In this document: positions 356 through 20,000 of the stretch, one piece after another | Position numbering within the stretch: the first letter of the stretch is position 1 | Layout: every line of letters starts with the position of its first letter | DNA from: an uncultured virus (IMG/VR IMGVR_UViG_3300020357_000003) | Taxonomy: Duplodnaviria; Heunggongvirae; Uroviricota; Caudoviricetes | Reading direction: 5' to 3' (one strand) | Length of the DNA: 20,000 nucleotides | IMG/VR virus record: IMGVR_UViG_3300020357_000003 | Made by a program: the position numbers and the translations under genes | Notes under the pieces: generated by a model | The model's input: the letters and a program-made list of their open reading frames with translations, nothing else | Databases searched by the model: none | Told to the model about the DNA's origin: nothing

Positions 356-988
356 ATGGAAGATGTGAAGTTAACACCAATTGATCAAATGACTCAGGAC
401 GAACTCAAACAAGAGTTAAAAGAGTATGGAGTTGTGTTTCACCATAAAACAGGTCAAGCTAAATTAGCGGAATTACTAGCTGATGTTAGAAAAAATCCTG
501 AAAGCATGGTACAGGATTTTGATAATGAAGACGTAGCTACAGATCGCCCATATGAAGGCGGTAATCCTAATGCAAGTGAAGCTGCTATAGCTGCAGCTAC
601 TAAAGCAATGAAACGAACTGGAGAACAAGAAGCATTAAAATTAGTTCGTATTGTAGTTACTCCTAATGATCCACTTATGAGTAGTTACCCTGGCCTTATA
701 TTTACAGTAGGAGCTTCTGGCCTTAATAACGGAAGAATGATTAAGAAATTTGTTCCATTTAATAACGAAGAAGGCTGGCATGTTCCTAATATTATTTATA
801 ATCAGATAAAACATGCTGAGATGCAAAAGTTTAAAACTGTTACTCGTCCTAATGGTGAGAAAGTATTAGAGCCTTACATTACTCAAAAATTTAACGTACG
901 AGTATTGGATCCCCTTACTAAAGAAGAATTGGAAAGACTAGCTGCCGCTCAAGCAGCTAATCCAGCATTCCATACGGGAGATAACTAA
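356..988 (+). CDS. N4 gp55-like protein (210 aa)
   Basis: SD AGGAGG at 346-351. N-terminal helix-extension-helix-like segment (ELKQELKEYGVVFHHKTGQAKLAELL). C-terminal LVRIVVT...PGLIFTVG...KFVPFN...WHVP...KFNVRVLDPLTKEELERLA resembles recalled N4 gp55 homologues. Synteny agrees. Confidence 0.8.
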   Translation: MEDVKLTPIDQMTQDELKQELKEYGVVFHHKTGQAKLAELLADVRKNPESMVQDFDNEDVATDRPYEGGNPNASEAAIAAATKAMKRTGEQEALKLVRIVVTPNDPLMSSYPGLIFTVGASGLNNGRMIKKFVPFNNEEGWHVPNIIYNQIKHAEMQKFKTVTRPNGEKVLEPYITQKFNVRVLDPLTKEELERLAAAQAANPAFHTGDN

Positions 989-1512
989 TGGCTATTACTA
1001 TTGCTGATTTAACTGCTGGAGTTGCTACTGATGCTAATAACGTAGTAACAGGTACAGGTGTATTTGATGATCTAATGGAAACAGTAAATGCACATATGGC
1101 CGCTCAATTTAATTTAGGTCGTATTACTGGCAGTGACTACGCAACAGTGTATTTGACCGCTATGCAAGCAGCTGTTCAGCAAGCTGTAGCTTATGTAATA
1201 GGGATGCAAAAAGGCAATGCTGAAGAATCCCTACTTTTCCAAAAAGAAGTTACGGAATTTGCTCAAACTGAACAAAGTACTAAAACTGCCCCAACAACTA
1301 CTTCTGTAGCAGGGAGAGCAAATAACTTGTCTACTGAACAAGCTAAAGGGTTTAAATGGAATGCCGATCAGAAATACCTTAAAACTCTATTAGACGCTTG
1401 GAGCGTAAATGTCTCAACTGCTGGTGTTGCCTCTACAGGTGTAGTTGCTCTTAATACAACTGGAACAGGTAATATTAATACGCAAATAACTAACGCAGAA
1501 CCTACAGGATAA
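988..1512 (+). CDS. N4 gp54-like virion structural protein, probable tail tube (174 aa, compact)
   Basis: TAATG stop/start overlap with the upstream gene and GGAG SD. DLT...GTGVFDDLM...H...RITGSDYATVY and C-terminal K..LDAW.V are typical of recalled N4 gp54 homologues. Synteny agrees. Confidence 0.8.
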   Translation: MAITIADLTAGVATDANNVVTGTGVFDDLMETVNAHMAAQFNLGRITGSDYATVYLTAMQAAVQQAVAYVIGMQKGNAEESLLFQKEVTEFAQTEQSTKTAPTTTSVAGRANNLSTEQAKGFKWNADQKYLKTLLDAWSVNVSTAGVASTGVVALNTTGTGNINTQITNAEPTG

Positions 1513-4396: not shown

Positions 4397-5272
4397 ATGG
4401 CAGAAAATAATATTCCTTTATGGCAACAATATATTAATCAATATGCCCGTAGAGCAAGTAGACCTACATGGGGCAGACCGCAACAACCTCCTGGGTGGGA
4501 ATATCTAGCTAATCCACAACAATCAATGCCCGCAGTGATACCCACAGATTCAGCAGGTTCATATAGTTGGGCAGATCAGAACGCTTATTCTGTAAATCCA
4601 CAAACAAAAGAAAGGTATTTACCTGGGTGGAAAGCGAATCCCTATAGTGCTACTGGTGGTGTGGATGCAAGAATGCCTAGCTACTATGCAATGTCAGAAG
4701 GCGTAGTTCCAGATGATTGGAATTTCGGTGGTGGTGGTAGTGGTCGTGATAGATGGAAAAGTCTAGCAAGGCTTAGTGGAAATCAAAATTTTCTTAACCT
4801 ACCCACAGCAAATGAGCTAGCACAAACATACGGTAGTGCTAATATTGGTGGTAGTAGTTGGTTTGATACGGATACTGGTACTGGTACTGGTACAACTAAG
4901 GATGAAGATGATCCAGATTTGTATGATCCATTTGATGTAGGTGAACCTTCAGTAGACCAGATGAGATCATCCGCTACAGGATTAATTGATCCCTCTAAGT
5001 ATGGATCAGATTCAATATGGAGCGGGATTAAAGAGTGGACAGGCAAGAATCCAATGAAAGCTGCAGGTATTGGTTTAGATTTATGGAAACAAATAAACCA
5101 AAATAGAGCTTTGTCACAAAATAAAGCATATATGGATGATGTACGAAAAGCCATGGCATTTGATCAAGCTGATGTAAATAGACGTTGGGATCTAACTATG
5201 AAAGACTACAATAGACGAGTAGCTTTAGATGATAAATTCTTAGAGTCTCAAAAATTACCTACAGCAGTTTAA
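4397..5272 (+). CDS. N4 gp52-like ejection protein with long low-complexity N-terminal extension (291 aa)
   Basis: SD AGGAG. C-terminal amphipathic helix plus coiled coil (SIWSGIKEW...AAGIGLDLWKQ...AMAFDQADVNRRW...YNRR). Cys-free. Positional equivalent of gp52. Confidence 0.6.
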   Translation: MAENNIPLWQQYINQYARRASRPTWGRPQQPPGWEYLANPQQSMPAVIPTDSAGSYSWADQNAYSVNPQTKERYLPGWKANPYSATGGVDARMPSYYAMSEGVVPDDWNFGGGGSGRDRWKSLARLSGNQNFLNLPTANELAQTYGSANIGGSSWFDTDTGTGTGTTKDEDDPDLYDPFDVGEPSVDQMRSSATGLIDPSKYGSDSIWSGIKEWTGKNPMKAAGIGLDLWKQINQNRALSQNKAYMDDVRKAMAFDQADVNRRWDLTMKDYNRRVALDDKFLESQKLPTAV

Positions 5273-5498: not shown

Positions 5499-7565
5499 AT
5501 GGCAAGAACTAACTTACCAGGGAATATTTTAAAAAGCCTTAATACCAGATTATTAGGCAATTTAAAAAGTGGAGTTGATACTAATATCGACTTAATGCAG
5601 GGTCAAGCTAATCTAGCTGAGCAGGGAGTTCAACGATATGCAGATATCTCTGCACAGGATTTTCTTTCAGATATAGAAGCTGTTAATACGGGTGATCCTA
5701 CACAGGATCTTTTAGCGAGAAATCAGTTAGTTCAACAAATGAAAGCAGACCCTGGTTTAATTGATATGGGTAAAGTTAATGTAGGACTGAGAAATATTCG
5801 AAAACAAGCTCCTATTGATTATTTAAAAGGTCAAGAGGCACAAAAAGCATTTAAAACGCAACATGATATTGACTGGGATACAAAGCACATGCGTGATCTT
5901 CCTAATCAATTTTTAGATGACGGTTCCGTAAATCCTGCTTTTCAAACAAGCTTAGAAAGTAATATTGCCGAAGCTAGAAGAAACAATATTGCTATTCCTC
6001 AAGAAAAAGCTCTGTATCGAAGTATATTCGATAATGATCCCTTTACACTATCAGCAGATACGACTACTACGTTAGAGAATCTATCAAAAGGTGGTGCAAA
6101 AGCATTTACTAAATCAGCACAAGCAGGTGTGATTAATAAAATAGCCGATAACATGGCTAAAAAATATCCTGGAATAACAGACAGGTCTGTATTCAAAACT
6201 AGAGCAGGTACTTTACTAGCTAATTCTAAATACGGTCAAAATTTTACATTAGGAATTGCAGATGAAGCTACTGATACAATTGATACGCTTGCAATAGAAC
6301 GAATGCAAAGTGATATAAGTAACGCTGCTCAGAATTATGGTAAAGGAACGGGAGAAGTCCTTGCTCAAAATAATAAAGTATATAGAGATAGTGTTAATGC
6401 TTTAATTACTTTTATGAATAAAAATAATATTGGAAGCGATCATCCAAACGCAAAAAATCTACAAGCTCCAATATTAAGAGCACTACAACGAGACGGCCTA
6501 TCTTTAGACAGTGTTGTTAAAAACAATACTAGTTGGTTAGCAGAATTAAATAGTGGTGCAATTAAAGTTAGTACTGCACAAAGCATAAAAGGGGCAATAC
6601 GTAGACACTACCAAAATCTATATCCTGAACTTACAGATGGTATTTTTGATCAGCACTACGACAAACTCAAAAATAACGCAGGAAGTGGTATATCAGCAGC
6701 TATTACACAAGGAGCTGCGAATGCTGCAGCTAGGGCAAAGACTATTGCCATAGATATGAAGAACAAAGAGGAATTCTGGTCAAGAGCGAACAGAGATGCA
6801 AATGCAATGGAGTATGAAACTGTTGAGGGTCATATTACTAGATCGTTAATGGAACAACTTAAAAGCGACTATAAAGATGAAGACTTTGACCCAGGTACTG
6901 GGATGGAACTTCAGGAATCAATAAGAAGGACTAAAAATCTATATGATTATGCTATAGGTCGAAAACTTCCTGAAAGCGGCCCCGAAAGGGATGCTTATAA
7001 TTTAGCTCTTAAACGAACAATGCTAAATAGTGTTACTTGGGACACAAAATTCACAGTCGGAGGATATACTGTAGTAAAAGCTGATTTCGGAATGGTAGGC
7101 GCCCCAGGGAATATAAGTCCTGAATGGTGGGATAATTTTCCAAATAAAGTAGATCTGTATAATAGATTTAAAGAGAATATTATACCTGCTAACGCTCTTA
7201 GAAAAGCTGAGAAAAATGAAAGAAAACTTAAAGAAGGATCTAAAAGCCTAATAACGGCAACCAATGACGCTCTTAAAAGTGTTAAATCACAAACACCACA
7301 AATATCAAAGTCTAGGGTTAGTTCTACTTATTCACAAGGTCTTGATCCACTATATCAATTTTCACAAGGAGGAGTAGGAAATCGTTATCAACCATCTACT
7401 ACTGGTCAACCAATTCCAAGTCAGAATACAGGAGGAACTCCGACTGCAAATCCAAACGTTGTAGAATTAGACAATGGAACCTTTCAGGTAACTTTACCTA
7501 ATGGTAAGACGGAAATAATAAGTAGAGAAAAAATGGCAGCCTACACTCTAATGGGTAGGCAATAA
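5499..7565 (+). CDS. N4 gp51-like ejection/internal virion protein (688 aa)
   Basis: SD TAAGGAG at 5487-5493. Directly upstream of vRNAP, helical Ala/Asn/Gln-rich composition, no Cys, size similar to gp51. Assigned mainly by synteny. Confidence 0.6.
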   Translation: MARTNLPGNILKSLNTRLLGNLKSGVDTNIDLMQGQANLAEQGVQRYADISAQDFLSDIEAVNTGDPTQDLLARNQLVQQMKADPGLIDMGKVNVGLRNIRKQAPIDYLKGQEAQKAFKTQHDIDWDTKHMRDLPNQFLDDGSVNPAFQTSLESNIAEARRNNIAIPQEKALYRSIFDNDPFTLSADTTTTLENLSKGGAKAFTKSAQAGVINKIADNMAKKYPGITDRSVFKTRAGTLLANSKYGQNFTLGIADEATDTIDTLAIERMQSDISNAAQNYGKGTGEVLAQNNKVYRDSVNALITFMNKNNIGSDHPNAKNLQAPILRALQRDGLSLDSVVKNNTSWLAELNSGAIKVSTAQSIKGAIRRHYQNLYPELTDGIFDQHYDKLKNNAGSGISAAITQGAANAAARAKTIAIDMKNKEEFWSRANRDANAMEYETVEGHITRSLMEQLKSDYKDEDFDPGTGMELQESIRRTKNLYDYAIGRKLPESGPERDAYNLALKRTMLNSVTWDTKFTVGGYTVVKADFGMVGAPGNISPEWWDNFPNKVDLYNRFKENIIPANALRKAEKNERKLKEGSKSLITATNDALKSVKSQTPQISKSRVSSTYSQGLDPLYQFSQGGVGNRYQPSTTGQPIPSQNTGGTPTANPNVVELDNGTFQVTLPNGKTEIISREKMAAYTLMGRQ

Positions 7566-7597
7566 TCTACTAATCTAGATATGAATAACTCAGAAAT

Positions 7598-10500
7598 ATG
7601 GCACTTAAAGAAGAGCTACATAACGCAGACATTGTTCAAGCGTTAACTAATGGCGCAACTCCACCAAAACCTTCCGCAAGAGACTCCCTTTTACAGACTA
7701 AAGCCGCTAGTTTAGCTAATGTACTAAATGCTAAACGCAATAGTGTCCATAATCTTAAAGCTACTAGATTAGCACAGGTTATAAATCACAAATATGGTAT
7801 GGGTGGGGCAACTCCCAATGTAGTCGGTACTAACAGTGATACTTTATCTACAGGTGAATTTGGTAATGTTACGTTTTCTGATAAAGTAAATCCAGACCCT
7901 GTAGTTACAGATGTAACAGCTGACCCTCTTACTACTCCTAAATCTTTTACAGAAGAAAATGAGATTTTTACGGCTATAGATGGAGCTGCTGAAGAATTTG
8001 GACTTCCTAAAGCATTATTTCGTTCGTTAGTTTTTGAAGAATCAGGCAATAAACAAACTGCTAAATCTCCAACCAATGTTAGAGGTATAGCTCAAGTAAC
8101 ACAACAAACCATGGAAGAAATGTTACCTGGTGGCGATGTAAATAATGCCGCTCATCAGTTGTATGCTGGAGCTAAGTACTTATCTAAGCATGTTAATAGA
8201 TGGAAACTTAAAGGATTTGACGAACGACAAGCTCAACAGTTAGCTGCTGCATCATATAATACTGGTTTTAGTCGTGTGCTGGAAGCTATTAAAGCAACTA
8301 AAAAAACTCATCCTACAATGCAAGAAATAGAAACTGCTGGTATTGCTCTATTTAAACAACGACCATTTAAAGGTGGAGTTAAAGAAGGCCCTGGTGGAAA
8401 AAAAGTAGCTACCAAAAAACGTAAAGATCTTGATAGTTTTAAAGAAGGTATGGGGCATTGGAAAAAAATTCATTACAAAGATGGTGTATTACAAGATTTT
8501 ACTAAACCTACTCCTCAAACACCGTTTGTTACAAAAATGCCAGAAGCAGTTGAGGAGACGTCCAAGCCAGTATCTAGTCAAACACATAAACCAGAAGACA
8601 AACCAACACCTCCTCCTATTAAAACAATTGATCCATCTGTTGATATTAGTGCTCCTGGTGGTATTGCAAAGGCTGTACAAGAAGCTCCTCCTGCTGATGT
8701 AGATTTACGAGATACTGGGGCAGATCGTAGAAAAGCTGAAAGACTACAAGCACAAAGAAGAGAATTTAAACGAATAGATGAACTTAGAAAAATTACTAAT
8801 AAGGCAGATAAAGAAGAAGTTGTTTTAACACCTACTCACAAATTACCTCATCTTAAAGAGCACAAGCCTCCTACACCTATTACTAAACCTCCTAGTGTTG
8901 ATATAGATAGAAGAGATCCAGGTAAAGACCGTGCAAGAGCAGAAAAACTGCAAGCAGAACAACGAAAATTTAAAAGAATAGATCAAGAACTAAGTAGCCG
9001 TAAAAAACAAAAGAAGTTTAGTGTGGATAGTCTTAGTGGTTATGGAGATTTTGCAACTGGACGTCAGGATCTTTCCGCAAATCAGTATTTAAATTCTGGT
9101 CTTGATACCATTATGGACAATGTCCAGACCAATAAAAAAATTATAGAAGATAAACATGATTCTGCTTATTTTGATAACAAACGTAAACAAGCTCTTACAA
9201 AGAGAGCAGAAATTATTTCTGATCCTAAAGGAACTTATCAACAACCTGCTGTTACTCCTGAAGTTCCAGAAACGGTACCAGAAGTAACACCAGAAGCAGT
9301 TCCGCAAATAGATGTTCCAGAGCCAGATATTTATAGTCCTCGATCTGTACCAAAAACAGTTAGTGAAAATATTTATAGTCCTGCTACTCCTCGCCCTGCT
9401 GAGGCTAAAACTTATGAGGATTTATACAGTTCTTACAAAACTCCTAATGAAGCACTGATTAAAGAAATTTATAAACTACCAGATTTTACTCCATCATCTC
9501 CAATAGTATCTGTAAATCGTAACTTAGTAGAATTACAAGATGGAACATATCGTCTACTTACACAAGACGGTACATGGATGCCTTTTAGCGATAAAATCGA
9601 AGCTCAAGTATTCATGGCTTATGATATTGCAAACTATCAAGCTAATCTTTTGGATCATCCTGAAGAAACATCAGTATCAGGAATGTACAATAAATTAGTA
9701 GGAGGTTTAGTTGATCCTGTTGAAACTATATTTCAAGGATTTGTAGGAGCTACAACTTTAACAGAACATATTAATGATCATAATAATAGACTTAAAGCTG
9801 GAAGTTTTCTGTCGTCTATTACACATGATCCTAATGATGAAATTACTCAGCAAGACAAATTAAACTATTTAGCAATTCAAGAAAATAAAGGACTATCAGC
9901 TGAGTTGCAGGCATTTAAGGATAGTGAAAAGTATCAAGTAATTGCTACTTTAGATAAGGATGCGAAAGAAAACCAAGACCAACAAGCTAAGCTTAAAGAA
10001 TTCTCTAAAATATGGCATGAAGCACATCCATATAATAGAAAATATATTGAAAGTGCTACTACAGCAATGCGTGTAATTGCTAAAGAGCATGGCAATGCGG
10101 CAGCAGCTTTAGAGCTATTTAAAGAATACAAAGGTACTCTTGCCCTACAAGGTCTTGATAGTTTTGGATATACGGTAGCATTAGTATATGGAAATATACC
10201 TGTCCAACTTGGGCTACTTACTGGCTTAGCTAGAGGCAGAACTAAGGCTAATATTGAGCAGTATGTTGCCGAGCATGGTGAAAAGGCATTAACACCTGAA
10301 ATACTTACGGATATTAAAATATTTTCTACTTTACAAGAAGTATCTGAAAAAGTAAGTGCAGGTATAGTTGTAAAACAACTTAAATTAATCCCAGGATTAG
10401 GTGGTGCTGGTTTATGGGGCACACAGATAACGAATGGTGTATTGGCAACTATACATCCTACTGTACGTACGTTAGGTAAAGTAGTATGGGCTCCTCCTAA

Positions 10501-13500
10501 AATGTTTGGTGCTGAGTTTGTACAAGGAACAACTAATTCAATGCTGGAACAAGCGGCATTACAGAAAAAAGTTGATATTGGTAAAGCAGCAGTTGAAGGA
10601 GGAATTCCAGAAGGATTTGCAGTTGGTACTATGGCACCAGCAATGGCAGTTGGAGGAACAGCCAAAGAGGTAACTAAAAAAGTTGCTAAAAAAGCATGGG
10701 ATCCTTCTGGAAAGAAAGCAGCAGCTAAAACAGACAAAGCAACTAAACAAAAAATTGAAAATGAAATAAAGAGCACTCAAGAAAAAATAGAAAAAATTAA
10801 AAAGATGCAAGAAGCACCTTCTAATTTAAAATCTAAATTAGACGCTCTTACTGAACAATTAACTGATTTACAAGATGCTTATGATGAAATACCCAATCTA
10901 CACGGTAAAACTTTAAGTTTACCTGGTCGACCTGGAAAACTGGAAACTACTAATACCTTACTGAAAAAGCTATATAAGCCTTATGAACAGTTAGTTTCAG
11001 ATGGTGCCATGTCATTAGATGACGCTATCGAAGCAATGAATGATGATTTAGAAGCTGAAATAGAGAAAAGACTAGAAGAGAAAACTAATTTAGAAGAGCA
11101 ACTGCCTGATCCAATCACACTTGAAGATACTGTTGAATATGTACAACATGAGGGCAAAGCAGTACCTGTAGGGATTGGGGCAAGAAAAATGACTGAACTC
11201 TTAGAACTTGAACTCCAATTAGAAACAAAAATAGCTGAACATAAGAGTAATGTTGAAAAGATTAATCAAAGTGACATACCTGGGCCGAAAAAACAGGAAG
11301 CTATTAAAATAGAAGAACAGAAACATGCTACATACCTAGAAGGAGCAATTAAAAAACAGGATAAATTGCTTAATGAGTTACAAGCTCCTCTTAACCCAAC
11401 AATGCTCAAAGTCTATGAAAAACAATTAATAGACGTTAATGATAGAAGAACTAAGGTACTTGAAAATGAATCATATAAAGCAAGTCCTAAGTCTCCGACT
11501 ATGCCAGGATCCGCAAATCCAAAAGGATTTAGGGCTGATGGAACAGGTAGAGATGTAGACAAAATTTCAGATGAAGAAGTTGATGCTCAAATTACATTAA
11601 TTAAAAAGATGAGCGAAGAAGAAGATCCAGATATTACGAATTTTGATCCAAGTGGAAAGTTTAAACCAGGAGACGTAGTTCATTTAAATACAACTGATGA
11701 AGAATTACTTAAAAAAGGTGAACAAGGATTTGTTATTGAAACAATCCTAGGCAAACAAGAAAGAGATGGGAAGGTTCATGTAAAACTTGCAGGAGTAACT
11801 GAAACTGTCCCAATTGATTCATTAATATTTGGAAATAAACCACGAACTGATACAACTCCTTCTACAAAATTAGATCATGTAGAGGCATTAATTGATAAAG
11901 ATTTAACTGATGCACAGATTACAAAAGTACGAGAACAACTCTCAAAAGAAATAAAAGAACTAGAAGAAAAAATAGGAACTGGTAAGAGAGTTCTAGGGTC
12001 ATTAGAAGATAGGCTTGATGAAATAGAAAAGTTAACTCCAGAAGAATTAGAAAAGAAATTAGCAGAAGCCAAGTCCCCAGATGACATAAAATTCTGGACA
12101 GCTAAACTTAATCAAAAAAGAATTCAAAAAGAAAGAGGTGAAAAACAAGACGCTATTGATAAAGATATGGCAACGGTACATGAGGAAATTCTTGAAGGGG
12201 AGAGCAAGAAATTTAAAGGATTACATGCTTACTACACAGACATTGTAACAGCCCTTACTGAATTAACAGATCATGTAAAACTCACAAGACGACTTGAATC
12301 TCTTGTTTCAGATATGCGTACTCATGCTACTAATATAAACAATAAATTAAATGCATTTGATAATGCCTATGAAATATTTACTAGTACTGGTAAAGCCGTA
12401 GCTGTTGTGGGTACTAAAGCTGAAAATAGTAGAGATATGACCTATGAAGTAGTAACAGATATGACCGAGACTCAAATTGATGAAGCACATAAAAAGAAAT
12501 TATATAATGGAAAATTTGCGTATGTTACAAAAATAGATAAAAACTCAGGTAGATTAATTGATACGCTTGCTGGGGAAGTAAATTATGGTAATTGGATTAT
12601 GGGGGTAGTTGAAGGACATAGAAATACTTCTATGGCTAAAAATGAATTCAATAAAGCCCGAAATCTTGCTGAACACGAAGAAGTTTTAAGAAGATTAAAA
12701 AAAGCTAAAGATTCTCTTAAAGCACCTGAAATAGATGAAGCAACAATAGAGGGAATATCAGTTGAAGACATTCCTACAACTCCGACTGCTATTCTTAAAG
12801 AAAACCTAGAAGCTATTTTACAAAGAGGGTTGGAACTTAAAAAGAAAATAGACGAGGGTACAATAACTCCAGAGGAAAAAAATGAACACGAATCTCTCCA
12901 ACAAAGCTATATTGCTCTCAATAAAGAAATTCAAGGACGAGAAAAGATTGAAGGAGCAGAACCAGGAGAACAACTTGACCTTTTTCCAGAAGGTGAAGTC
13001 CCTGAAAGATCTGATGAACCACCTGGCCCAACTACTACACCTTTTGATGAGACTACTCCACCTCCTAGACCGGGTGAAAAAGGAGAGCAACTCTCGTTAT
13101 TCGACAGATCTGCCGAAGATACAACAGAAAAAGGAACACAATTAAATCTGTTTCCTAATTTTATTGAAGGCAGCAAACGAATATACAAAAGAGCTATTAC
13201 AGGAGGTGTACTTAAAGTATTAGGCGGTAAATTAACGGCTACTAATTTAGAACGGCAGTTAAAAGTACTTGGTGCGTATTTTACAGACTTAGTTCAAATC
13301 GGATCCACACGACCTACATTAAAAGATGCTGTTAATACTCTGATGGATGAAGATTTTGATACTCAGGAATCGTTAGTTAATGCCTTAATGAATTTAGGTG
13401 TAACACAAGCATCGGCTGAAACATTATCTAAAAACTTTACGCATTTTAAAAATAGATATGATCAAGTTAGTTCTATAGATTTATCAAGAAAAGAGGTTGT

Positions 13501-16500
13501 AATACGGACGGTTAATAATGTTACAGACGTAGATAAAGATGGGAATCCTATTCTATGGAAAGTAGAAGAATTAAGTAGAGACATAAATGATGCATATGAT
13601 AAAGATGGTCAATACACTAGAGTAAGTAGAGAGATTAAAGATGCATCTGGTAATATTCAGACCACGACTAAGGTATTGCCTACATCTGAACTATTAAATG
13701 TTAGAAATCATGCTTTAAGAGCCCCGTTAACTTTACTTCTTCAAGAAGATCCTACTGGTAATAACAATCAAGGTGTACTACCTAATCAGATAGTATTTAC
13801 CATGATGTTAACAGCTATGTCTTTTAGACAACGTACCCCTAACAATAATAGATTTAAGGATAACGACTTTGCAAAAGAAGCTTTTCTATATAGTGGTAAG
13901 AACCAAACACTTAATAGAAATGAAGATGAGGAACTTAATGACGTTGGTTTTGGGTACCATGATGCAGCTATGGATATGGGAAACCATGCTATTAGTATTT
14001 TAGATCTAAGAGCTAAAAAAATCCCTAAAGACAGTCCTATAGACCAAGTAGGAGCGGATCTATATTTTGAACTCCTAGCTCCTGCACTTGGAATGATGGC
14101 CTTAGAAATTGCTCAAGGCACTGATAAAGGTGCTTATTTTTCTGTAGAGAAAAAATATTGGAATTTTGATGATTACAATGAAAATAGGGCTTTTAACAAT
14201 GCACCTACGCATGAAAAAGTCTCTGATAATGAAGAGATTAGAAAAAAATATCCAGAAGGTAAACCTATACCATTAGAACAACAACAGCATTACTTACATA
14301 TTAAAGTAGATGAAAATCAAAAATGGAACCAAAGTACTTTTGATGCCTTAGAAGAAATGAAAAGTATCTCTAAGGCTAATATGATTAATAGTCCTGGCCC
14401 TTTTCAAACTCCTCCTCCAATAAACCCATCTACAGGTACTTTTACAGAAGCTCCTAAAGGTGGGGAAGTTTATGAAACACTTAAAAGACTTCAAAATGTT
14501 GTATGGAGTAAATTAGAGTCCATGGATCTTGTGGCTGATTTACGAGACACAGATGTCTTGAAAGAGCTAATGGATGTTGAGGAGTTATACGAAACTACTG
14601 AGGATGGTGAAAAAATACAATTATTCCATGACGTTGAAATAGCCAGTAAAACATCTAGAAATAATGGAATGCTAGATACTTTGCAGGAACTATTACAGGC
14701 ATATGATCGTGGGGAATTAACAGCATTTCATTTAGCTTGGAAATTACAAAGCCACCATAGGTATATGCAGGTAGGTAAGATTAATCCTCAAAATAGTAAA
14801 CTTACTAGAGGCTTAGTAGGTGCTTGGGGACTTAATAAAATTTCCGTAGATAATGAACAACAGTTTACTAATTTTAAATTAGCAATTAATGAAGCTTTTG
14901 CTGTAGAGAAAAAAGATTTAGTTGAATCAGAAGAAGCCTTTCAGAATATTATTAATCACTCAAATGTTCTAGCAGCTGTAGAAGCTATGCAACGTCTTAA
15001 TGCCGCTAAAGGAATTCTTAGAACTAAACCTAAAGATGCCAAGGCTAAGAAGGATAAAGACAGAGCTTCTCAAGATCTATCCTCAGCTTTATCAGCAATT
15101 AAAAAAGATAATACATTTAAAGAAGCTGATATTACTCTCCTAAATGGTATTACTGCATTATCTAAATACATGACAGTAGAAGCTATTCAGAAAACTAAAG
15201 CAGGTTATCCAAGTAGAAATAAAAGATATACTAAGAATTTTAGACGAATTGAAGACAAATCAAAATCTACTTTTGAAACTGATCTTTATACTGAAAGGGA
15301 CGGTACTTCTAATGGTTGGGCTATAAATGTACTCCAGTTTCCTATGTGGGACAAAGAAGAACGTATACGTAAGAATAGTCAAGTAGGCCATAATCTTAAA
15401 GATAAGTCCTTTGATCCAAAAGAACCTGGTGTTTATGAAGATCTAGTTAAATTTATGCAGAATAATGACTCTGCTGATGTTGCTTGGGAATGGTACAAAG
15501 ATAAGTATAAGAAAAAAGTATTTTCAAGAGTGTCAAAAGACCTAGTTGATAAAAAAAGATATACTCTGACAAAAGAGGGAGAAGCTAATTTTAAAGAGGA
15601 CTATAACAAGATTAATGCCGCTCTTATAATTATCTATCCAGAGTTTAGAGATCAGGAATCTATGAGGGAGGTTGTTAAGTATCCTTTTATTATGAAGATG
15701 TATGGTGGAGGAATAGCTAATATAGCTAATGAGGTAAGTAATGAAGTAAATAAAGCTATGTACTCACGAATTAGTACTATTCAAAAAGAATACAAAGAGA
15801 TTTTTAATAATGAAGAAGAGGAACTCCTACGTTCAGATATACCTGCATTCCTTACTAAAGTTACTAATAGAAAAGGAGTACCAGACGCTAAACAATATGC
15901 TAAAGAAGATCTTACAAATAGAATTTATACATTAAGAATTTTTAATTCTAATACTATTCCAGGATTAACTGCATCTCAGCATTTTGGAAATCCTTGGGCG
16001 TCTAGAGATATCCCAGGTACTATCAAAACACCAGATATAAAAACTGCTGTTAATAATTATAAAGCATGGTTAGAGGGTACAGCCCATCAAGATGTAGAAC
16101 CTAACCGTAGAAAATGGATTCGTAAACAAATTGGTGATGGTAATTTAGATGATAAAGAATTAGTTTACTACACGACATTGTCGGAACCTAGCCATGCAGA
16201 TGTACTAAGAGATTTGGTAGAAGAAACCTCAAAAACAGCGCTTCCTGTAGACACCCATAAATACAAAAGATATGGATTTTTTGAAAATAGAAAAAATTAT
16301 GAAAAGCAAATTATTACACCTTTTATGGATGCTTTAGAAACACTAAATGCATTTAATCAAACAGATCGAGGAGCTCTTGGTCGAATGTTAATAGAAGGTA
16401 CTAAAAAAGATTTAGGTATAACTCCTCCTGCTTTTAAAGTAAAGCTTAATGACATACAGGTACGTGCAGAATTAAATACTCGTGTTGCTCCTAGATTTGA

Positions 16501-19500
16501 AGCTAGTTTAGATGAGTTACTTGGGGATACTGTAGAACCTCGACAATCAATAGTCGAAATGGGAGACGTACTACACCAAGTATTTATGGTTCATTTTGAA
16601 GAGGCTATTAAGAATAAATTAGATGAAATTAATTTAGATGCCCCTGTTATGGAAGATGTACCTGTTGAAGTTACACAAGGCGCCTATACGTTTAACGTTA
16701 TAAAGACTAAAGATGGCTTTAGCATTACTAATAAGAAAACAGGCAAACCTGCTCCTAAAAACATGGCAGCGAAGACTCGCAAAGCTATTGAGGATAAGGC
16801 TACTGAGCAACTTAGGGCTGTTAGGCCTGGTTTAACTAAACAAGAAGTTATTGATCTGGTTAAGGATAAACAAGGCTTAATGAAATTCTACCCTCAAGTA
16901 GCTGGTGCTTTAGCTACAAGGCTCCAAGATGGAACAATTGAAGGTGGTATTGATTTAAGTTCTACTAAATTTACAACTAACAAAGGTGATATAGAAGAGA
17001 ACCAAGCTGAAATTAACTTTTATGATCGTGAAAGACAAAAAGATACATCCAGATCTACACCTAAACGATCATTGGTATTCGATGCAGCTGGATTAGCTGT
17101 GCTAATTCGTCAGGTTATCAACCAAGACGCATCAGCTATGACTAGGCTACTTTTGAAAAAAGCAGAAATAAATGCTCTTCATGATGGATTTAATGCCAGT
17201 AGTAATTGGGCAAATTACTTAACAAGAACCTATAACAAAATACACTGGGAACTCAATACAACCCATAGCATTATGGAAGCAATGCATAATCAAATGCTAG
17301 GGGTTCTGCGTAATACAGATCGTAAAGATATAGTAGATGCTATAGAACTAACTGAGAAAGAACAAAAACGAATAGCTAGAGAAGAAAAATTAACTGCTAA
17401 AGCTATTCAATTAATGGAAGAGTTTAGACAAGATATAGATAATCGAACTAAAGCTGCAAAATTAAATGATTTTATAAAGGAACATAAACTTGACGCTGAC
17501 AGATTGAGAATGGGATTTAAGAATGCCAAGGTAGGTAAAACACTTACTAGATTAGATAAAGTAAAAATGCGTGTATGGGAAGCTAATCCAGAATACCTTG
17601 AGTGGAATGACAAATCTAGTCTTAGTGTTATATCTGAAAGAGCTAAAGCAATTACACAAAAAGTACGTGAGCAAAGACAAAAGCTACTAGAAGATGGCTA
17701 CACTAATATAGACCATATGTATAATTTATCTAATGAAGAATTATCTGAAACTGACACACTAAATGAGTTTGAACAAAACTATAATAAGAATACAGAAACA
17801 TTTAGCTTTACATCTTTTGAAGCAATGGGAAAATCTATGGGTTATAACCCAAAGATATCTAGAGATAGTGGTAATTTTAATAAACACTATAGAGAGCAAA
17901 CTAATTTATTTCCTGCTTATAATAAAGATTTAGATATAAAACTTACAAAATTAGGTAAAAAATTGGGTCTTCATTCTTTAGACGCTTTTCCTAAAGGTGA
18001 AATAACTTCTACTGAAGAACTAGGGGCTATTACTAGTGATAATGTTAGATCACTATTTAATAAATTTAAAGCTCTTTCAGGTAAGTACTACGATAGTCAA
18101 GATGAAATGGATTCACATACATCTACGTTAAATGAAGTATTAGATATTATATCTGACGGGTTTCAAGAAACTAATGATCTTACTTTAACAATGGAGAAAA
18201 TAGAAGGAATTACTCAAGCAACTTATGAACCAGAAAGTGAACGCATAACTATGTCTGTTAGTCAATTACCTCCTAGAGGGCGTAATGGGCAATCACCACA
18301 GGAAGCATATCTTCATGAAATGGTTCATGCTATGACATTGGTTGCACTGGAAGAAGATCCTGTATTAGCAGATAGACTTGAAAGCTTACATAATGAATTA
18401 GAAGCTGAACTACATAAAGATTTTAAGGGTGAGGGCTGGAAAGTATTCCGTCCTAAAGGAACTAGTCCAGTTAATTTAGCTACAGGTGCAGAAACTAATC
18501 TAGCAAAAGCACAATATAAACATGCTTTCGACACAGCAAATTCTAAGGATAGACTAACTGAGTTTTTATCAATGGCTCTTACGAATAGATCTTTAATTGA
18601 TTATATGAAATCAAAACAACTTGCTAAAGATCGAAGCTATTTAACTAAATTTATGGAATTCGTTCAATCAATTGTAAATGCTTTTAAACGAATACTTAAT
18701 AAGAAAGTAGAGTCCAATAATACGACAGCTTATGCTGAAGCTATAGCGATTACGGAACAATTAGTTGCTATGCAAAATAAACATAAAAGTAAATATGGTC
18801 AATTAGATAGTAAAACTATTCAATTTTTAGAACGCTCTGACGCTCGGATAATTGAATTTTTTGATCAAGCTGTTGCAACAGTAGCTGCTGAAACAGAAAA
18901 ATACGGGCCAGGTGGAGAAACGGCTCCAATACCATTTAAAGTTGCAACTATGGGTACATATGCAGGGTACCTAACCATGAGTGATAGTGTTCACGCTAAA
19001 GCAACTAGAGATCACATTATGGGTTTGCTTAATTTTACTATGCGTGGTGTTGCTAAAGAAATAGGAGGCGGTGCTTTAGAGAATCCGAAACTGGTAGAAC
19101 AACTACTTCATTCTAAAATTAATATATCTAAAAGACGTAGAGAAGCAGAGACATTCTCTAATGAATGGTTTAAAACTATCTGGAAATCCAGACCAGATGA
19201 TAGTGGAGATGATAAATGGATGTCTTTTGAAACTCGAGAAGCTCTTACTGATGTACTTTTAAGAGCAGATCTATCTAGTCTTCGTAAGATGCATACTTTA
19301 GGATTTGCAGATAAAGATCCTAATGCTACTAGAAAAATTATGAACTTATTAGGAGAGGATAAGGTTGCTAGAATTGAAAGAAGTAGATTAAAAGATCAAA
19401 TTAGAAGGCAACTTGGGTTAACTAAAGATAGTGAAGCTATAGCATATGCAGATGAATTAGGTTACTGGATTGCAACTGGTAAACGCAAAAAACATGATGC

Positions 19501-20000
19501 ATATACTAATGCGTATTCTATTGCTCTTGACCACTTAGAAGGAGACTTTACTCCAGCACAAGTTAATTTATTAGATGCATATGCGACTATATCTTCTATC
19601 CCTCATCTTGATATTCAACAACGGGAGAAAGTTCAGCAACTATCTACTAGAGAATTTAATGCAGATCCAGATGCTAATGGAATGATTGATTTACTCGATA
19701 ATCATATCTGGTACAAAACAAAATCTCAAAGAGATCTGTTTGATGGAGATCCTGTTCAAATGGTTAAAGGCTATATTGTTGAACGTCTGGATAATCTTAC
19801 AGATATTAAAATTGGATCAGCTGCGGATAAAGATAAGATGGCTGCTCGTGGATATAAACACTCGTACCCATTAGGTAAAATAGATAGATCACAAACACTG
19901 GATACAATGTATATCAATAGAAATATTCCAGAAGTAGCTGATATATCCGGGATTATGTCTACGACCAATCAACGACATATGGGAACCTCATTAACTGAAA
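7598..20000 (+). CDS. vRNAP: Giant virion-encapsidated RNA polymerase (N4 gp50-like), >4134 aa, 3'-truncated by the window
   Basis: Manual translation from ATG 7598 (in-frame TAA at 7586-7588 upstream) shows no stop to the window end. Polymerase motifs: QSHHR...NPQ (14747-14791), motif A LYTERDGTSNG (Asp 15299-15301), motif B REVVKYPFIMKMYG = Rx3Kx7YG (15665-15706), motif C ALHDG (Asp 17183-17185). HEMVH at 18314-18328. Confidence 0.95.
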   Translation, partial: MALKEELHNADIVQALTNGATPPKPSARDSLLQTKAASLANVLNAKRNSVHNLKATRLAQVINHKYGMGGATPNVVGTNSDTLSTGEFGNVTFSDKVNPDPVVTDVTADPLTTPKSFTEENEIFTAIDGAAEEFGLPKALFRSLVFEESGNKQTAKSPTNVRGIAQVTQQTMEEMLPGGDVNNAAHQLYAGAKYLSKHVNRWKLKGFDERQAQQLAAASYNTGFSRVLEAIKATKKTHPTMQEIETAGIALFKQRPFKGGVKEGPGGKKVATKKRKDLDSFKEGMGHWKKIHYKDGVLQDFTKPTPQTPFVTKMPEAVEETSKPVSSQTHKPEDKPTPPPIKTIDPSVDISAPGGIAKAVQEAPPADVDLRDTGADRRKAERLQAQRREFKRIDELRKITNKADKEEVVLTPTHKLPHLKEHKPPTPITKPPSVDIDRRDPGKDRARAEKLQAEQRKFKRIDQELSSRKKQKKFSVDSLSGYGDFATGRQDLSANQYLNSGLDTIMDNVQTNKKIIEDKHDSAYFDNKRKQALTKRAEIISDPKGTYQQPAVTPEVPETVPEVTPEAVPQIDVPEPDIYSPRSVPKTVSENIYSPATPRPAEAKTYEDLYSSYKTPNEALIKEIYKLPDFTPSSPIVSVNRNLVELQDGTYRLLTQDGTWMPFSDKIEAQVFMAYDIANYQANLLDHPEETSVSGMYNKLVGGLVDPVETIFQGFVGATTLTEHINDHNNRLKAGSFLSSITHDPNDEITQQDKLNYLAIQENKGLSAELQAFKDSEKYQVIATLDKDAKENQDQQAKLKEFSKIWHEAHPYNRKYIESATTAMRVIAKEHGNAAAALELFKEYKGTLALQGLDSFGYTVALVYGNIPVQLGLLTGLARGRTKANIEQYVAEHGEKALTPEILTDIKIFSTLQEVSEKVSAGIVVKQLKLIPGLGGAGLWGTQITNGVLATIHPTVRTLGKVVWAPPKMFGAEFVQGTTNSMLEQAALQKKVDIGKAAVEGGIPEGFAVGTMAPAMAVGGTAKEVTKKVAKKAWDPSGKKAAAKTDKATKQKIENEIKSTQEKIEKIKKMQEAPSNLKSKLDALTEQLTDLQDAYDEIPNLHGKTLSLPGRPGKLETTNTLLKKLYKPYEQLVSDGAMSLDDAIEAMNDDLEAEIEKRLEEKTNLEEQLPDPITLEDTVEYVQHEGKAVPVGIGARKMTELLELELQLETKIAEHKSNVEKINQSDIPGPKKQEAIKIEEQKHATYLEGAIKKQDKLLNELQAPLNPTMLKVYEKQLIDVNDRRTKVLENESYKASPKSPTMPGSANPKGFRADGTGRDVDKISDEEVDAQITLIKKMSEEEDPDITNFDPSGKFKPGDVVHLNTTDEELLKKGEQGFVIETILGKQERDGKVHVKLAGVTETVPIDSLIFGNKPRTDTTPSTKLDHVEALIDKDLTDAQITKVREQLSKEIKELEEKIGTGKRVLGSLEDRLDEIEKLTPEELEKKLAEAKSPDDIKFWTAKLNQKRIQKERGEKQDAIDKDMATVHEEILEGESKKFKGLHAYYTDIVTALTELTDHVKLTRRLESLVSDMRTHATNINNKLNAFDNAYEIFTSTGKAVAVVGTKAENSRDMTYEVVTDMTETQIDEAHKKKLYNGKFAYVTKIDKNSGRLIDTLAGEVNYGNWIMGVVEGHRNTSMAKNEFNKARNLAEHEEVLRRLKKAKDSLKAPEIDEATIEGISVEDIPTTPTAILKENLEAILQRGLELKKKIDEGTITPEEKNEHESLQQSYIALNKEIQGREKIEGAEPGEQLDLFPEGEVPERSDEPPGPTTTPFDETTPPPRPGEKGEQLSLFDRSAEDTTEKGTQLNLFPNFIEGSKRIYKRAITGGVLKVLGGKLTATNLERQLKVLGAYFTDLVQIGSTRPTLKDAVNTLMDEDFDTQESLVNALMNLGVTQASAETLSKNFTHFKNRYDQVSSIDLSRKEVVIRTVNNVTDVDKDGNPILWKVEELSRDINDAYDKDGQYTRVSREIKDASGNIQTTTKVLPTSELLNVRNHALRAPLTLLLQEDPTGNNNQGVLPNQIVFTMMLTAMSFRQRTPNNNRFKDNDFAKEAFLYSGKNQTLNRNEDEELNDVGFGYHDAAMDMGNHAISILDLRAKKIPKDSPIDQVGADLYFELLAPALGMMALEIAQGTDKGAYFSVEKKYWNFDDYNENRAFNNAPTHEKVSDNEEIRKKYPEGKPIPLEQQQHYLHIKVDENQKWNQSTFDALEEMKSISKANMINSPGPFQTPPPINPSTGTFTEAPKGGEVYETLKRLQNVVWSKLESMDLVADLRDTDVLKELMDVEELYETTEDGEKIQLFHDVEIASKTSRNNGMLDTLQELLQAYDRGELTAFHLAWKLQSHHRYMQVGKINPQNSKLTRGLVGAWGLNKISVDNEQQFTNFKLAINEAFAVEKKDLVESEEAFQNIINHSNVLAAVEAMQRLNAAKGILRTKPKDAKAKKDKDRASQDLSSALSAIKKDNTFKEADITLLNGITALSKYMTVEAIQKTKAGYPSRNKRYTKNFRRIEDKSKSTFETDLYTERDGTSNGWAINVLQFPMWDKEERIRKNSQVGHNLKDKSFDPKEPGVYEDLVKFMQNNDSADVAWEWYKDKYKKKVFSRVSKDLVDKKRYTLTKEGEANFKEDYNKINAALIIIYPEFRDQESMREVVKYPFIMKMYGGGIANIANEVSNEVNKAMYSRISTIQKEYKEIFNNEEEELLRSDIPAFLTKVTNRKGVPDAKQYAKEDLTNRIYTLRIFNSNTIPGLTASQHFGNPWASRDIPGTIKTPDIKTAVNNYKAWLEGTAHQDVEPNRRKWIRKQIGDGNLDDKELVYYTTLSEPSHADVLRDLVEETSKTALPVDTHKYKRYGFFENRKNYEKQIITPFMDALETLNAFNQTDRGALGRMLIEGTKKDLGITPPAFKVKLNDIQVRAELNTRVAPRFEASLDELLGDTVEPRQSIVEMGDVLHQVFMVHFEEAIKNKLDEINLDAPVMEDVPVEVTQGAYTFNVIKTKDGFSITNKKTGKPAPKNMAAKTRKAIEDKATEQLRAVRPGLTKQEVIDLVKDKQGLMKFYPQVAGALATRLQDGTIEGGIDLSSTKFTTNKGDIEENQAEINFYDRERQKDTSRSTPKRSLVFDAAGLAVLIRQVINQDASAMTRLLLKKAEINALHDGFNASSNWANYLTRTYNKIHWELNTTHSIMEAMHNQMLGVLRNTDRKDIVDAIELTEKEQKRIAREEKLTAKAIQLMEEFRQDIDNRTKAAKLNDFIKEHKLDADRLRMGFKNAKVGKTLTRLDKVKMRVWEANPEYLEWNDKSSLSVISERAKAITQKVREQRQKLLEDGYTNIDHMYNLSNEELSETDTLNEFEQNYNKNTETFSFTSFEAMGKSMGYNPKISRDSGNFNKHYREQTNLFPAYNKDLDIKLTKLGKKLGLHSLDAFPKGEITSTEELGAITSDNVRSLFNKFKALSGKYYDSQDEMDSHTSTLNEVLDIISDGFQETNDLTLTMEKIEGITQATYEPESERITMSVSQLPPRGRNGQSPQEAYLHEMVHAMTLVALEEDPVLADRLESLHNELEAELHKDFKGEGWKVFRPKGTSPVNLATGAETNLAKAQYKHAFDTANSKDRLTEFLSMALTNRSLIDYMKSKQLAKDRSYLTKFMEFVQSIVNAFKRILNKKVESNNTTAYAEAIAITEQLVAMQNKHKSKYGQLDSKTIQFLERSDARIIEFFDQAVATVAAETEKYGPGGETAPIPFKVATMGTYAGYLTMSDSVHAKATRDHIMGLLNFTMRGVAKEIGGGALENPKLVEQLLHSKINISKRRREAETFSNEWFKTIWKSRPDDSGDDKWMSFETREALTDVLLRADLSSLRKMHTLGFADKDPNATRKIMNLLGEDKVARIERSRLKDQIRRQLGLTKDSEAIAYADELGYWIATGKRKKHDAYTNAYSIALDHLEGDFTPAQVNLLDAYATISSIPHLDIQQREKVQQLSTREFNADPDANGMIDLLDNHIWYKTKSQRDLFDGDPVQMVKGYIVERLDNLTDIKIGSAADKDKMAARGYKHSYPLGKIDRSQTLDTMYINRNIPEVADISGIMSTTNQRHMGTSLTE
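7976..8473 (+). other. SLT-family (GH23) lytic transglycosylase domain at the vRNAP N-terminus
   Basis: IDGAAEEFGLPKALFRSLVFEESG (catalytic Glu 8039-8041), AKSPTNVRGIAQ (GLMQ-type motif 8084-8095), QLYAGAKYL, AAASYNTG (AYNxG motif, to 8266). Confidence 0.88.
8687..8983 (+). repeat. Diverged ~31-aa internal duplication in the vRNAP
   Basis: PPADVDLRDTGADRRKAERLQAQRREFKRID (8687-8779) versus PPSVDIDRRDPGKDRARAEKLQAEQRKFKRID (8888-8983). Confidence 0.85.
9251..9382 (+). repeat. Pro/Glu/Val/Thr low-complexity repeats and an exact 14-bp direct repeat in the vRNAP linker
   Basis: VTPEVPETVPEVTPEAVP. ATATTTATAGTCCT at 9327-9340 and 9369-9382 (DIYSP / NIYSP). Confidence 0.8.
11660..11824 (+). other. 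KOW/SH3-like beta-barrel domain in the vRNAP
   Basis: FKPGDVVHL...GEQGFVIETI...DGKVHVKLAG..ETVPIDSL: F-x-x-G-D-x-V start and strand pattern typical of KOW/Tudor/SH3 barrels, embedded in coiled-coil sequence. Confidence 0.6.
12971..13153 (+). other. Three tandem beta-sliding-clamp-binding-like motifs
   Basis: QLDLF 12971-12985, QLSLF 13088-13102 and QLNLF 13139-13153, in an acidic Pro-rich disordered linker. Bacterial consensus is QL[S/D]LF. Confidence 0.75.
13250..17720 (+). other. Single-subunit (T7-superfamily, N4 mini-vRNAP type) RNA polymerase domain; boundaries approximate
   Basis: Motifs A, B and C in the correct order. NPQxxKLxR, AGLAV...DA preceding motif C, and terminal IDHM (N4-like VDQM). 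Confidence 0.9.
15923..16219 (+). other. DUF4326-like domain inserted within the polymerase between motifs B and C
   Basis: IYTLR...HFGNPW...AVNNYKAWL...LDDKELVYY...PSHADVL parallels the recalled DUF4326 pattern YIGR...WGNPF...Y..WL...L.GK.L.C.C...CH.DVL, with the Cys residues replaced. Confidence 0.7.
18180..18610 (+). other. Zincin-like metallopeptidase domain in the vRNAP C-terminal region
   Basis: Beta strands (ATYEPESERITMSV), then EAYLHEMVHAMT (HEXXH at 18314-18328), then a downstream candidate third ligand in RLTEFLSMALTN. Confidence 0.8.

Follow-up and report, generated by a model that had tools for sequence, protein, structure and literature searches.

The DNA considered here is a stretch of 20,000 nucleotides (nt) from an uncultured virus (IMG/VR record IMGVR_UViG_3300020357_000003, Caudoviricetes), and the whole of this stretch is referred to below as the window. 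From position 7598 to its end, the plus strand carries one uninterrupted open reading frame (ORF). In our judgment the product is very probably a virion-encapsidated, host-injected RNA polymerase (vRNAP) of the N4 gp50 type, encoded by an uncultured marine N4-like podovirus. A preliminary description of the window had already read the frame as the vRNAP of a divergent N4-like lineage, and a family profile, the polymerase motifs, and the gene order bear this out. The features of the gene are as follows.

7598..20000, plus strand: vRNAP gene, gp50 type, first 4134 of 4638 codons (ORF listing, PHROG 2206)
7976..8308, plus strand: SLT lytic transglycosylase domain, residues 127-237 (Pfam PF01464, PHROG 342)
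8682..8986, plus strand: two-copy 101-nt repeat encoding a basic helical unit (copies 8682-8782 and 8886-8986, 73% identical)
9245..9328, plus strand: Pro/Glu/Val-rich low-complexity stretch, residues 550-577
10175..10234, plus strand: hydrophobic segment, residues 860-879 (Kyte-Doolittle 1.47 over 19 residues)
11615..11827, plus strand: conserved small beta-rich module, about residues 1340-1410 (clade-invariant GD.V...DGK..V...G)
12947..13153, plus strand: Pro/Glu/Thr-rich linker between N-terminal domain and polymerase, residues 1784-1852 (composition, motifs)
12971-12985, 13088-13102, and 13139-13153, plus strand: QLxLF motifs QLDLF (residue 1792), QLSLF (1831), and QLNLF (1848)
13154..17992, plus strand: single-subunit RNA polymerase domain, about residues 1853-3465 (family profile, N4-aligned motifs)
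15293-15316, plus strand: ExDGxxxG/motif A (alignment to N4)
15665-15712, plus strand: motif B (alignment to N4)
15797..16228, plus strand: DUF4326-type domain after motif B, residues 2734-2877 (homology to DUF4326 members)
17177-17191, plus strand: motif C (alignment to N4)
17993..20000, plus strand: the part of the C-terminal domain (residues 3466-4638) that lies in the window (PHROG 2206, N4 alignment)
18314-18328, plus strand: zincin-like HEMVH, residue 3573
18557-18586, plus strand: invariant TEFLSMALTN with Glu3655

Extent and identity of the gene

With open ends allowed, the ORF listing gives a frame of 4134 codons without a stop, which starts with an ATG at 7598 and runs to the final complete codon, ending at 19999. 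The frame is listed only under that setting and is therefore absent from the ORF track, as had been remarked. The window forms the last 20 kb of contig G001:C12; virus record G002 extends only 87 nt more. An IMG/VR contig (L012) shares window positions 8098-19999, where 6 of the 11,902 bases differ, and in it the frame reaches its stop 1515 nt beyond the end of the window, for a total of 4638 amino acids (aa). A protein database entry of 4638 aa (P0003, in a cluster of 21 member sequences with a longest contig of 52.6 kb) is the same protein, and the remaining C-terminal end is also present on contig G001:C22. Thus, the claim of an uninterrupted frame of more than 4134 aa, far longer than the 3500 aa of N4, holds once the contig is extended to the stop.

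The stretch was found in 20 marine-metagenome runs from five studies, with eight rows flagged as possible sources, and contiguity was checked in four runs from three studies that were not so flagged. All 30 of 30 depth bins were covered in each of these four runs. Further, one 10,322-nt contig from run X9 spans window positions 7000-16323 with a single difference. RNA datasets were not among the runs listed as carrying the stretch. The gene is interrupted at the end of both contigs that hold window sequence, which could hint at an assembly fault, but it is exceedingly improbable that the long frame is an artefact, either a chimera or at least two genes fused by a missed stop or frameshift: an independent IMG/VR contig keeps the same frame open over 4621 codons, the X9 contig bridges 7000-16323, the indels of a ~96%-identical strain (run X17) are only in-frame or compensating, a homologue with 57% identity forms a complete ORF of 4558 aa bounded by a start and a stop, and 15 of the 18 IMG/VR relatives with both start and stop exceed 4100 aa (maximum 4808 aa, with starts assigned mechanically). 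Because independent marine metagenome contigs tile the gene without a frameshift, it is not a chimera, and no in-frame stop had been missed; both faults had been named beforehand as tests. The gene is real, intact, and completable at 4638 aa.

Two side observations concern the same DNA. An antisense 280-aa ORF at window positions 9934-10776 (minus strand), inside the vRNAP gene and present in L012 as well, is probably a chance frame in AT-rich DNA. In virus record L002 (G002:C1), ~140 nt into the overlap, four vRNAP codons read X (masked N).

Homology, intact polymerase motifs, domain content, gene context, and contiguity are shown directly by the sequence. PHROG 2206 (“virion RNA polymerase”) matches with E 5.2e-87 in four stretches, which include residues 2108-2488 (profile positions 1073-1420) and 3504-4133 (positions 2280-2892 of 3406); when fragments are searched separately, E is 4.9e-25 for the polymerase and 1.9e-50 for the C-terminal domain. 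A tblastn search with residues 3135-4134 returned 96 phage records, all of Schitoviridae-type vRNAPs at ~21-24% identity, and PDB chain 11fw_A (N4 “Virion DNA-directed RNA polymerase”) matches with E 2.6e-7.

The polymerase domain, which opens with an invariant NFIE, can be aligned to N4 at motifs A, B, and C, and its presence, as originally proposed, is supported by both the profile and these motifs. Paired motifs (this protein/N4) include LYTERDGTSNG/LYVEADGVTNG, LHDGF/IFDGM, and REVVKYPFIMKMYGGG/RGIAKNPLTITIYGSG. Residues D2568, R2690, K2694, Y2702, and D3196 do not vary among 10 clade members, and ERDGTSNG at 2566-2573 fits ExDGxxxG, the motif used to screen for vRNAPs (PMC10654107). The domain measures ~1610 aa versus ~1095 in N4. 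The ~500 extra residues, which include the 144-aa DUF4326-type domain, lie before the T/DxxGR region, after motif B, and both before and after motif C.

The C-terminal domain carries HEMVH and TEFLSMALTN, which align with HELVH (residue 2228) and NEFMAWGLAN of N4, and the clade shows no variation at H3573, E3574, H3577, or E3655. The vRNAP of Vibrio phage 1.026.O has HELNH at 2305. The assignment of this HExxH domain of N4-like RNA polymerases to the zincins comes from published work (PMC5512222), and the motif is also noted in the N4 cryo-EM paper (PMC13434306). An HExxH after the polymerase is thus an ordinary feature of the whole family. The “protease” of the preliminary description stands as far as the motif and its position are concerned, but it is no peculiarity of this protein, and the N4 enzyme has been reported as an “unprocessed polyprotein” (PMC13492108).

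Several results weigh against the assignment to the N4 gp50 type. The polymerase core (residues 1835-3134) gave no tblastn match at E<=1e-5 in 50,697 phage records, and Pfam domains of N4 scored below their cut-off (N4_RNAP_helical, 19.5-22 bits versus 27). At 4638 aa, the protein also exceeds the lengths of reference vRNAPs, which are given as 2842-3820 aa in a study that includes 158 high-quality genomes (PMC10654107) and as 3476 +/- 176 aa on average in another (PMC11445570), although length is a descriptive rather than a defining property. Composition fits the family: there are no cysteines in the 4638 aa, and none in 27 of 28 vRNAPs of >3000 aa, a set in which N4 gp50 and the Vibrio phage 1.026.O protein are among the 27 and the one exception has two. 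Suppression of cysteine is a published trait of Schitoviridae ejection proteins (PMC11445570), and its absence here is not new.

The N-terminal region

The preliminary description had predicted that ~1850 aa precede the polymerase, and the conserved NFIE indeed starts at residue 1854. The first domain in this long region is an SLT, as had been proposed, with Pfam PF01464 at E 5.5e-13 (48.9-51.7 bits against a cut-off of 21.3) and PHROG 342 (“internal virion protein with endolysin domain”) at E 2.7e-11. It contains FEESGN at 146-151, GIAQV, and SYNTG, corresponding to the ES, G.AQ, and YN.G motifs that we take to be the SLT signature. Only two SLT matches, both in Acinetobacter phage records, were returned by tblastn of residues 1-1000 against phages.

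The repeats that had been described are also present, the two 101-nt copies corresponding to residues 362-463 and encoding a unit of the form ...D.RD.G.DR..AE.LQA.QR.FKRID.... In the X17 strain, a 12-nt in-frame insertion (four residues) follows position 9259 in the Pro/Glu/Val-rich stretch, and conservation across the clade starts at about residue 620. The hydrophobic segment at residues 860-879 was likewise found, and its hydrophobicity is modest; it is a candidate membrane-inserting helix of the N-terminal domain, a domain in which membrane helices are known for N4 (PMC13434306).

Residues ~1040-1790 are mostly charged and helix-favouring, a statement based on a composition proxy only. The coiled coil assigned to this region was recovered only in part, through that proxy and through sub-threshold Pfam matches to coiled-coil families. 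The stretch is interrupted by the beta-rich module at ~1340-1410, whose columns are invariant in the clade and which had been called a KOW domain. That label was not supported: KOW (PF00467) gave no Pfam match at E<=1 on fragments of the vRNAP, nor at E<=5 in any of eight clade members (this protein and seven relatives). Its neighbours in a language-model search (Atlas) are TraI_2B, SH3_13, and Pif1_2B (score 0.86), to be taken as a lead only, and the module is more likely a generic SH3-like barrel, to judge by these sequence comparisons.

The linker motifs and the insert in the polymerase

The linker between the N-terminal domain and the polymerase is probably disordered, given its composition and lack of conservation. 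All three QLxLF motifs that had been pointed out (QLDLF, QLSLF, and QLNLF) are there, within 61 residues. A protein of such composition would be expected to hold 0.05 copies of QL.LF, and at least three occurred in two of 20,000 shuffles. QLDLF and QLSLF equal, and QLNLF nearly equals, QL[SD]LF, which we take to be the consensus of the bacterial clamp-binding pentapeptide. The term “clamp motifs” used for them in the preliminary description therefore stands as a sequence match only.

Variants of the motif occur in the otherwise unconserved linkers of relatives: QLDLF and QLKLF in L055, QFKLF and QLGLF in L056, GEQLELPF and YQLPLPF in L071, and GEQ[LIF]EF[SP]F in L061, L063, and L064. The motifs are missing from L057/P0007, L060, L067/L075, and P0012, as well as from N4 and Vibrio phage 1.026.O. 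Seven distant relatives (L080, L069, L014, L082, L081, L085, and L087) have a linker motif of the approximate form SKQ[AST][LF]xx[LV][FY]PE and no QLxLF; it sits ~80 aa upstream of the NFIE/DFIE anchor.

One possible reading of the trio, which we put forward tentatively and consider doubtful, is that the motifs would bind the beta sliding clamp, so that the ejected, membrane-anchored vRNAP captures the DnaN clamp of the host, whether as a tether or aid for early transcription or as a means of disturbing host replication. The agreement with the consensus, the clustering that shuffled sequences so rarely reach, and the survival of motif islands in relatives where the surrounding linker diverges are all consistent with such a role. 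No clamp gene was found in the records of five relatives, three of them rated complete, and any clamp bound would therefore be that of the host. There is a precedent in that MuC of phage Mu needs clamp-binding motifs for late transcription, and MuC and the late transcription of T4 through its own clamp involve clamp-binding transcription factors with near-consensus QLxLF-type peptides (PMC12867686). These factors are small activators of host RNA polymerase, whereas the putative motifs here lie in the linker of the polymerase itself. However, the motifs are lacking in the relatives and phages named above, the copies may be simple duplications, and the last of them, which adjoins the invariant NFIE at the opening of the polymerase domain, could have a structural role. 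Relatives also have QL.LF within their folded C-terminal domain (for example, at 4121 in L056 and at 3772 and 3976 in L075). Further, an N4 virion holds about four vRNAP copies, and such a number could bind few clamps.

Alternatively, the motifs could be cleavage or docking sites for the protein’s own zincin-like domain, or contacts with an ejection channel protein, which we consider unlikely. The HExxH and the downstream Glu are invariant, the motifs are placed exactly at a domain boundary, and the metallopeptidase has been proposed to cut polyvalent proteins into units (Iyer et al. 2017, PMC5512222); in DEV and N4, the N-terminal part of the vRNAP binds the tunnel protein (PMC13434306). Against this, purified N4 vRNAP is reported without degradation and is described as unprocessed (PMC13434306, PMC13492108), and N4 has the zincin domain yet no such motifs.

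The insert after motif B (residues 2734-2877) is lacking in three relatives (the 57%-identical homologue, P0005, and P0006), and it is present in P0004, which is otherwise near-identical to P0005. At E<=1e-3, an exhaustive phmmer search with the insert yielded 394 homologues, of which many are embedded in proteins of 2000-6600 aa. One of the homologues, P0141 (E 7.4e-9), scores 35.9 bits on Pfam DUF4326 (PF14216). Among 42 aligned short relatives of the insert, six match DUF4326, two carry a NADAR domain, and one carries a SLOG-family domain. Fusions of DUF4326 with NADAR and SLOG have been reported by the Aravind group, and DUF4326 is predicted to be a rhodanese-phosphatase-type enzyme acting on ADP-ribose-derived phosphates (PMC9503650, PMC7824862). 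Domains of this type also occur at different sites in other vRNAPs (L067, 1666-1796; L075, 1732-1862; L083, 1137-1309) and in the 3509-aa N4-like protein P0028 (1033-1165). In the X17 strain, the segment 15823-16258 has the same length but is diverged, with close flanks, which suggests cassette exchange or fast evolution of the module.

The insert’s own scores are weaker. Two points weigh against calling it DUF4326: it reaches 13.8-14.8 bits on PF14216, where the cut-off is 25, and it has Tyr and Ser in place of the cysteines of P0141. An AF2 model (pLDDT 86) had no Foldseek match in the PDB at E<=1e-3, and the best hit in a VIA fold search (RapZ, Z 4.3) was within noise; NADAR (Z 3.1) and dual-specificity phosphatases (Z 2.2-2.7) were weak matches. 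In addition, a 165-aa piece containing the insert matched no Pfam family at E<=0.01, and a non-exhaustive homologue search with this piece by itself recovered just two fragments, both metagenomic. The “DUF4326-like” label of the preliminary description consequently survives through transitive homology via true members, and not through a Pfam score of its own. Catalysis is uncertain because the canonical Cys is replaced by Tyr or Ser; the insert may be noncatalytic, and it may be an injected counter-defence module.

Many of the homologues of the insert (among P0015-P0163) lie within giant unannotated proteins, in what looks like a large set of polyvalent proteins. Eleven insert-bearing giants were scanned with PHROGs: one is an N4-like vRNAP, and others have DprA-like, exonuclease, or Dda-like helicase domains.

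Neighbouring genes, relatives, and known systems

Upstream of the vRNAP gene, the window holds five larger ORFs, which follow the N4 order from gp55 to gp51 and roughly the N4 sizes. Three of the five have PHROG matches.

356..1512, plus strand: two virion-module ORFs in the N4 gp55 and gp54 positions (356-988, phrog_2130, E 1.7e-40; 988-1512, phrog_2050, “virion structural protein,” E 2.3e-33)
1518..4334, plus strand: 938-aa ORF in the N4 gp53 position (phrog_2220, E 6.2e-51)
4397..5272, plus strand: 291-aa cysteine-free ORF in the N4 gp52 position (by position versus N4)
5499..7565, plus strand: 688-aa cysteine-free ORF in the N4 gp51 position (ejection protein, by position versus N4), no Pfam or PHROG match

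A homologue of the gp56 capsid protein, 56% identical to that of N4, is encoded just upstream of the window (G001:C12:20548-21495). Because homology, composition, gene order, and capsid homologue agree, the phage is N4-like (Schitoviridae-type) and the gene is its gp50. There are four cysteines in the 938-aa ORF and none in the two ORFs that adjoin the vRNAP gene, a pattern that fits the published avoidance of cysteine in ejected proteins (PMC11445570). The contigs of three relatives measure 74.0-75.5 kb and are rated 100% complete. The phage itself is split over at least two contigs (C12 and C22) of G001, a 1.4-Mb, 98%-complete bacterial genome bin. This location may reflect binning carry-over or an infected cell, and we claim no host, because the vRNAP occurs in only one of 81 genomes of the bacterial family of that bin.

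Sequence comparison places the vRNAP in an uncultured marine clade with vRNAPs of ~4200-4808 aa, in which database relatives measure 4326-4582 aa. Identity is 21-24% to described phages and 35-57% within the clade, which therefore forms a separate deep branch. In Pfam searches of the first 900 residues of 18 relatives, four had SLT, two LysM, one a 2OG-Fe(II) oxygenase, and 11 no match. Individual relatives illustrate this variety: the N-terminal region of L081 (220-14640, 4807 aa) has DUF7831 and a 2OG-Fe(II) oxygenase, that of L095 (9821-22561) has a PIF1/AAA_30 helicase-like domain, and L082 (559-3258) has a 2OG-Fe(II) oxygenase at its N-terminus.

The closest textbook comparison is N4 gp50 (3500 aa, PDB 11fw), which has the same plan of N-terminal domain, flexible linker, single-subunit RNA polymerase, and C-terminal domain with HExxH, and shares with our protein the polymerase motifs, the absence of cysteine, and a place in the late operon after genes in the gp51 and gp52 positions. 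However, our protein is 1138 aa longer, and BLAST aligns the two at E<1e-5 only in the far C-terminus, at 22% identity. The N4 vRNAP is without a peptidoglycan hydrolase, QLxLF motifs, or a DUF4326-type insert, all three of which are present here. The 3366-aa vRNAP of the marine, N4-like Vibrio phage 1.026.O (Schitoviridae, Pontosvirinae) does have an N-terminal wall-lysis domain, no cysteine, and a C-terminal domain 21% identical to ours over ~1200 aa. Its lysis domain, annotated as lysozyme-like in InterPro, is of the Phage_lysozyme type (below the Pfam cut-off) and not SLT, and the protein is 1272 aa shorter, without the linker motifs and without the insert. Internal virion proteins of the T7 gp16 type are likewise ejected and open the wall with an N-terminal SLT-type domain, to which the likeness is limited, since they have no polymerase.

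The kind of architecture is not new. Iyer et al. 2017 (PMC5512222) classed N4-like RNA polymerases among the polyvalent proteins: a zincin-like metallopeptidase is fused to every one of them, and some also carry a lysozyme/transglycosylase, ART, or PBECR1 domain. The interpretation in the preliminary description is partly right, and for the most part it arrives again at this published idea. For instance, DR90_1081 of a Moraxella prophage joins lysozyme/transglycosylase, PBECR1, RNA polymerase, and metallopeptidase, and the vRNAP of Roseovarius Plymouth podovirus 1 has an ART domain; both are compared here by their published description only. What these proteins share with ours is the concept of an injected giant with an RNA polymerase, a zincin-like HExxH, and variable effector or lysis domains. 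DUF4326 has zero occurrences in the main text of that paper (PMC5512222). The refuting conditions named beforehand gave mixed results: neither a missed stop nor chimerism was found, but SLT, polymerase, and HExxH recur together in relatives and a lysozyme domain is found in a described Schitoviridae vRNAP. The protein belongs to a known kind, of which it is an enlarged form, with added modules that make it about one-third longer than the textbook protein. What may be new in it, as judged from sequence, are the conserved motifs of the linker, which resemble clamp-binding peptides, and the mobile domain of DUF4326 type within the polymerase.

Few known single-chain enzymes are as large as vRNAPs, which have to pass through the phage tail. 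By analogy with N4, a few copies would be packed in the capsid and leave it after the two smaller ejection proteins, whose genes lie directly upstream. The N-terminal region would stay at the cell envelope, where the SLT would cut peptidoglycan during entry, and the polymerase and C-terminal domain would refold once in the cytoplasm, there to transcribe the early genes. The enzymatic activities and the binding partners of the motifs are predictions within this scheme. The proposal that a single ejected chain has its N-terminus in the periplasm or membrane and its polymerase in the cytoplasm agrees with the published N4 model (PMC13434306), and the preliminary description had correctly placed a wall-lysis domain N-terminally and a zincin-type HExxH downstream of the polymerase. 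Relative to N4, the additions are the SLT, a longer N-terminal region (repeats, helices, and the beta-rich module), the QLxLF linker, and the polymerase inserts. The ejection proteins of N4 itself are described as having no peptidoglycan hydrolase (PMC13434306); unlike in N4, it would be supplied here by the vRNAP, through its predicted SLT.

It is conceivable, and we offer it with considerable reserve, that this single-subunit phage RNA polymerase recruits the host clamp at the site of entry, through up to three clamp-binding peptides in the flexible tether that joins its membrane anchor to its catalytic domain, and delivers a DUF4326 counter-defence module. If so, clamp recruitment could help the enzyme to load or stay on the incoming DNA or, alternatively, replication could be hijacked in a small, slow-growing marine host, and an ADP-ribose-signal-degrading DUF4326 domain in the fingers would provide counter-defence in the first minute. 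Should the linker motifs bind the host clamp, an injected phage RNA polymerase would for the first time be linked to the host replisome. For the family, an abundant uncultured marine branch has enlarged its vRNAP to 4200-4800 aa through exchangeable modules (wall hydrolases, DUF4326, 2OG-Fe(II) oxygenase, and helicase-like domains), which would make the vRNAP a carrier for first-strike effectors.

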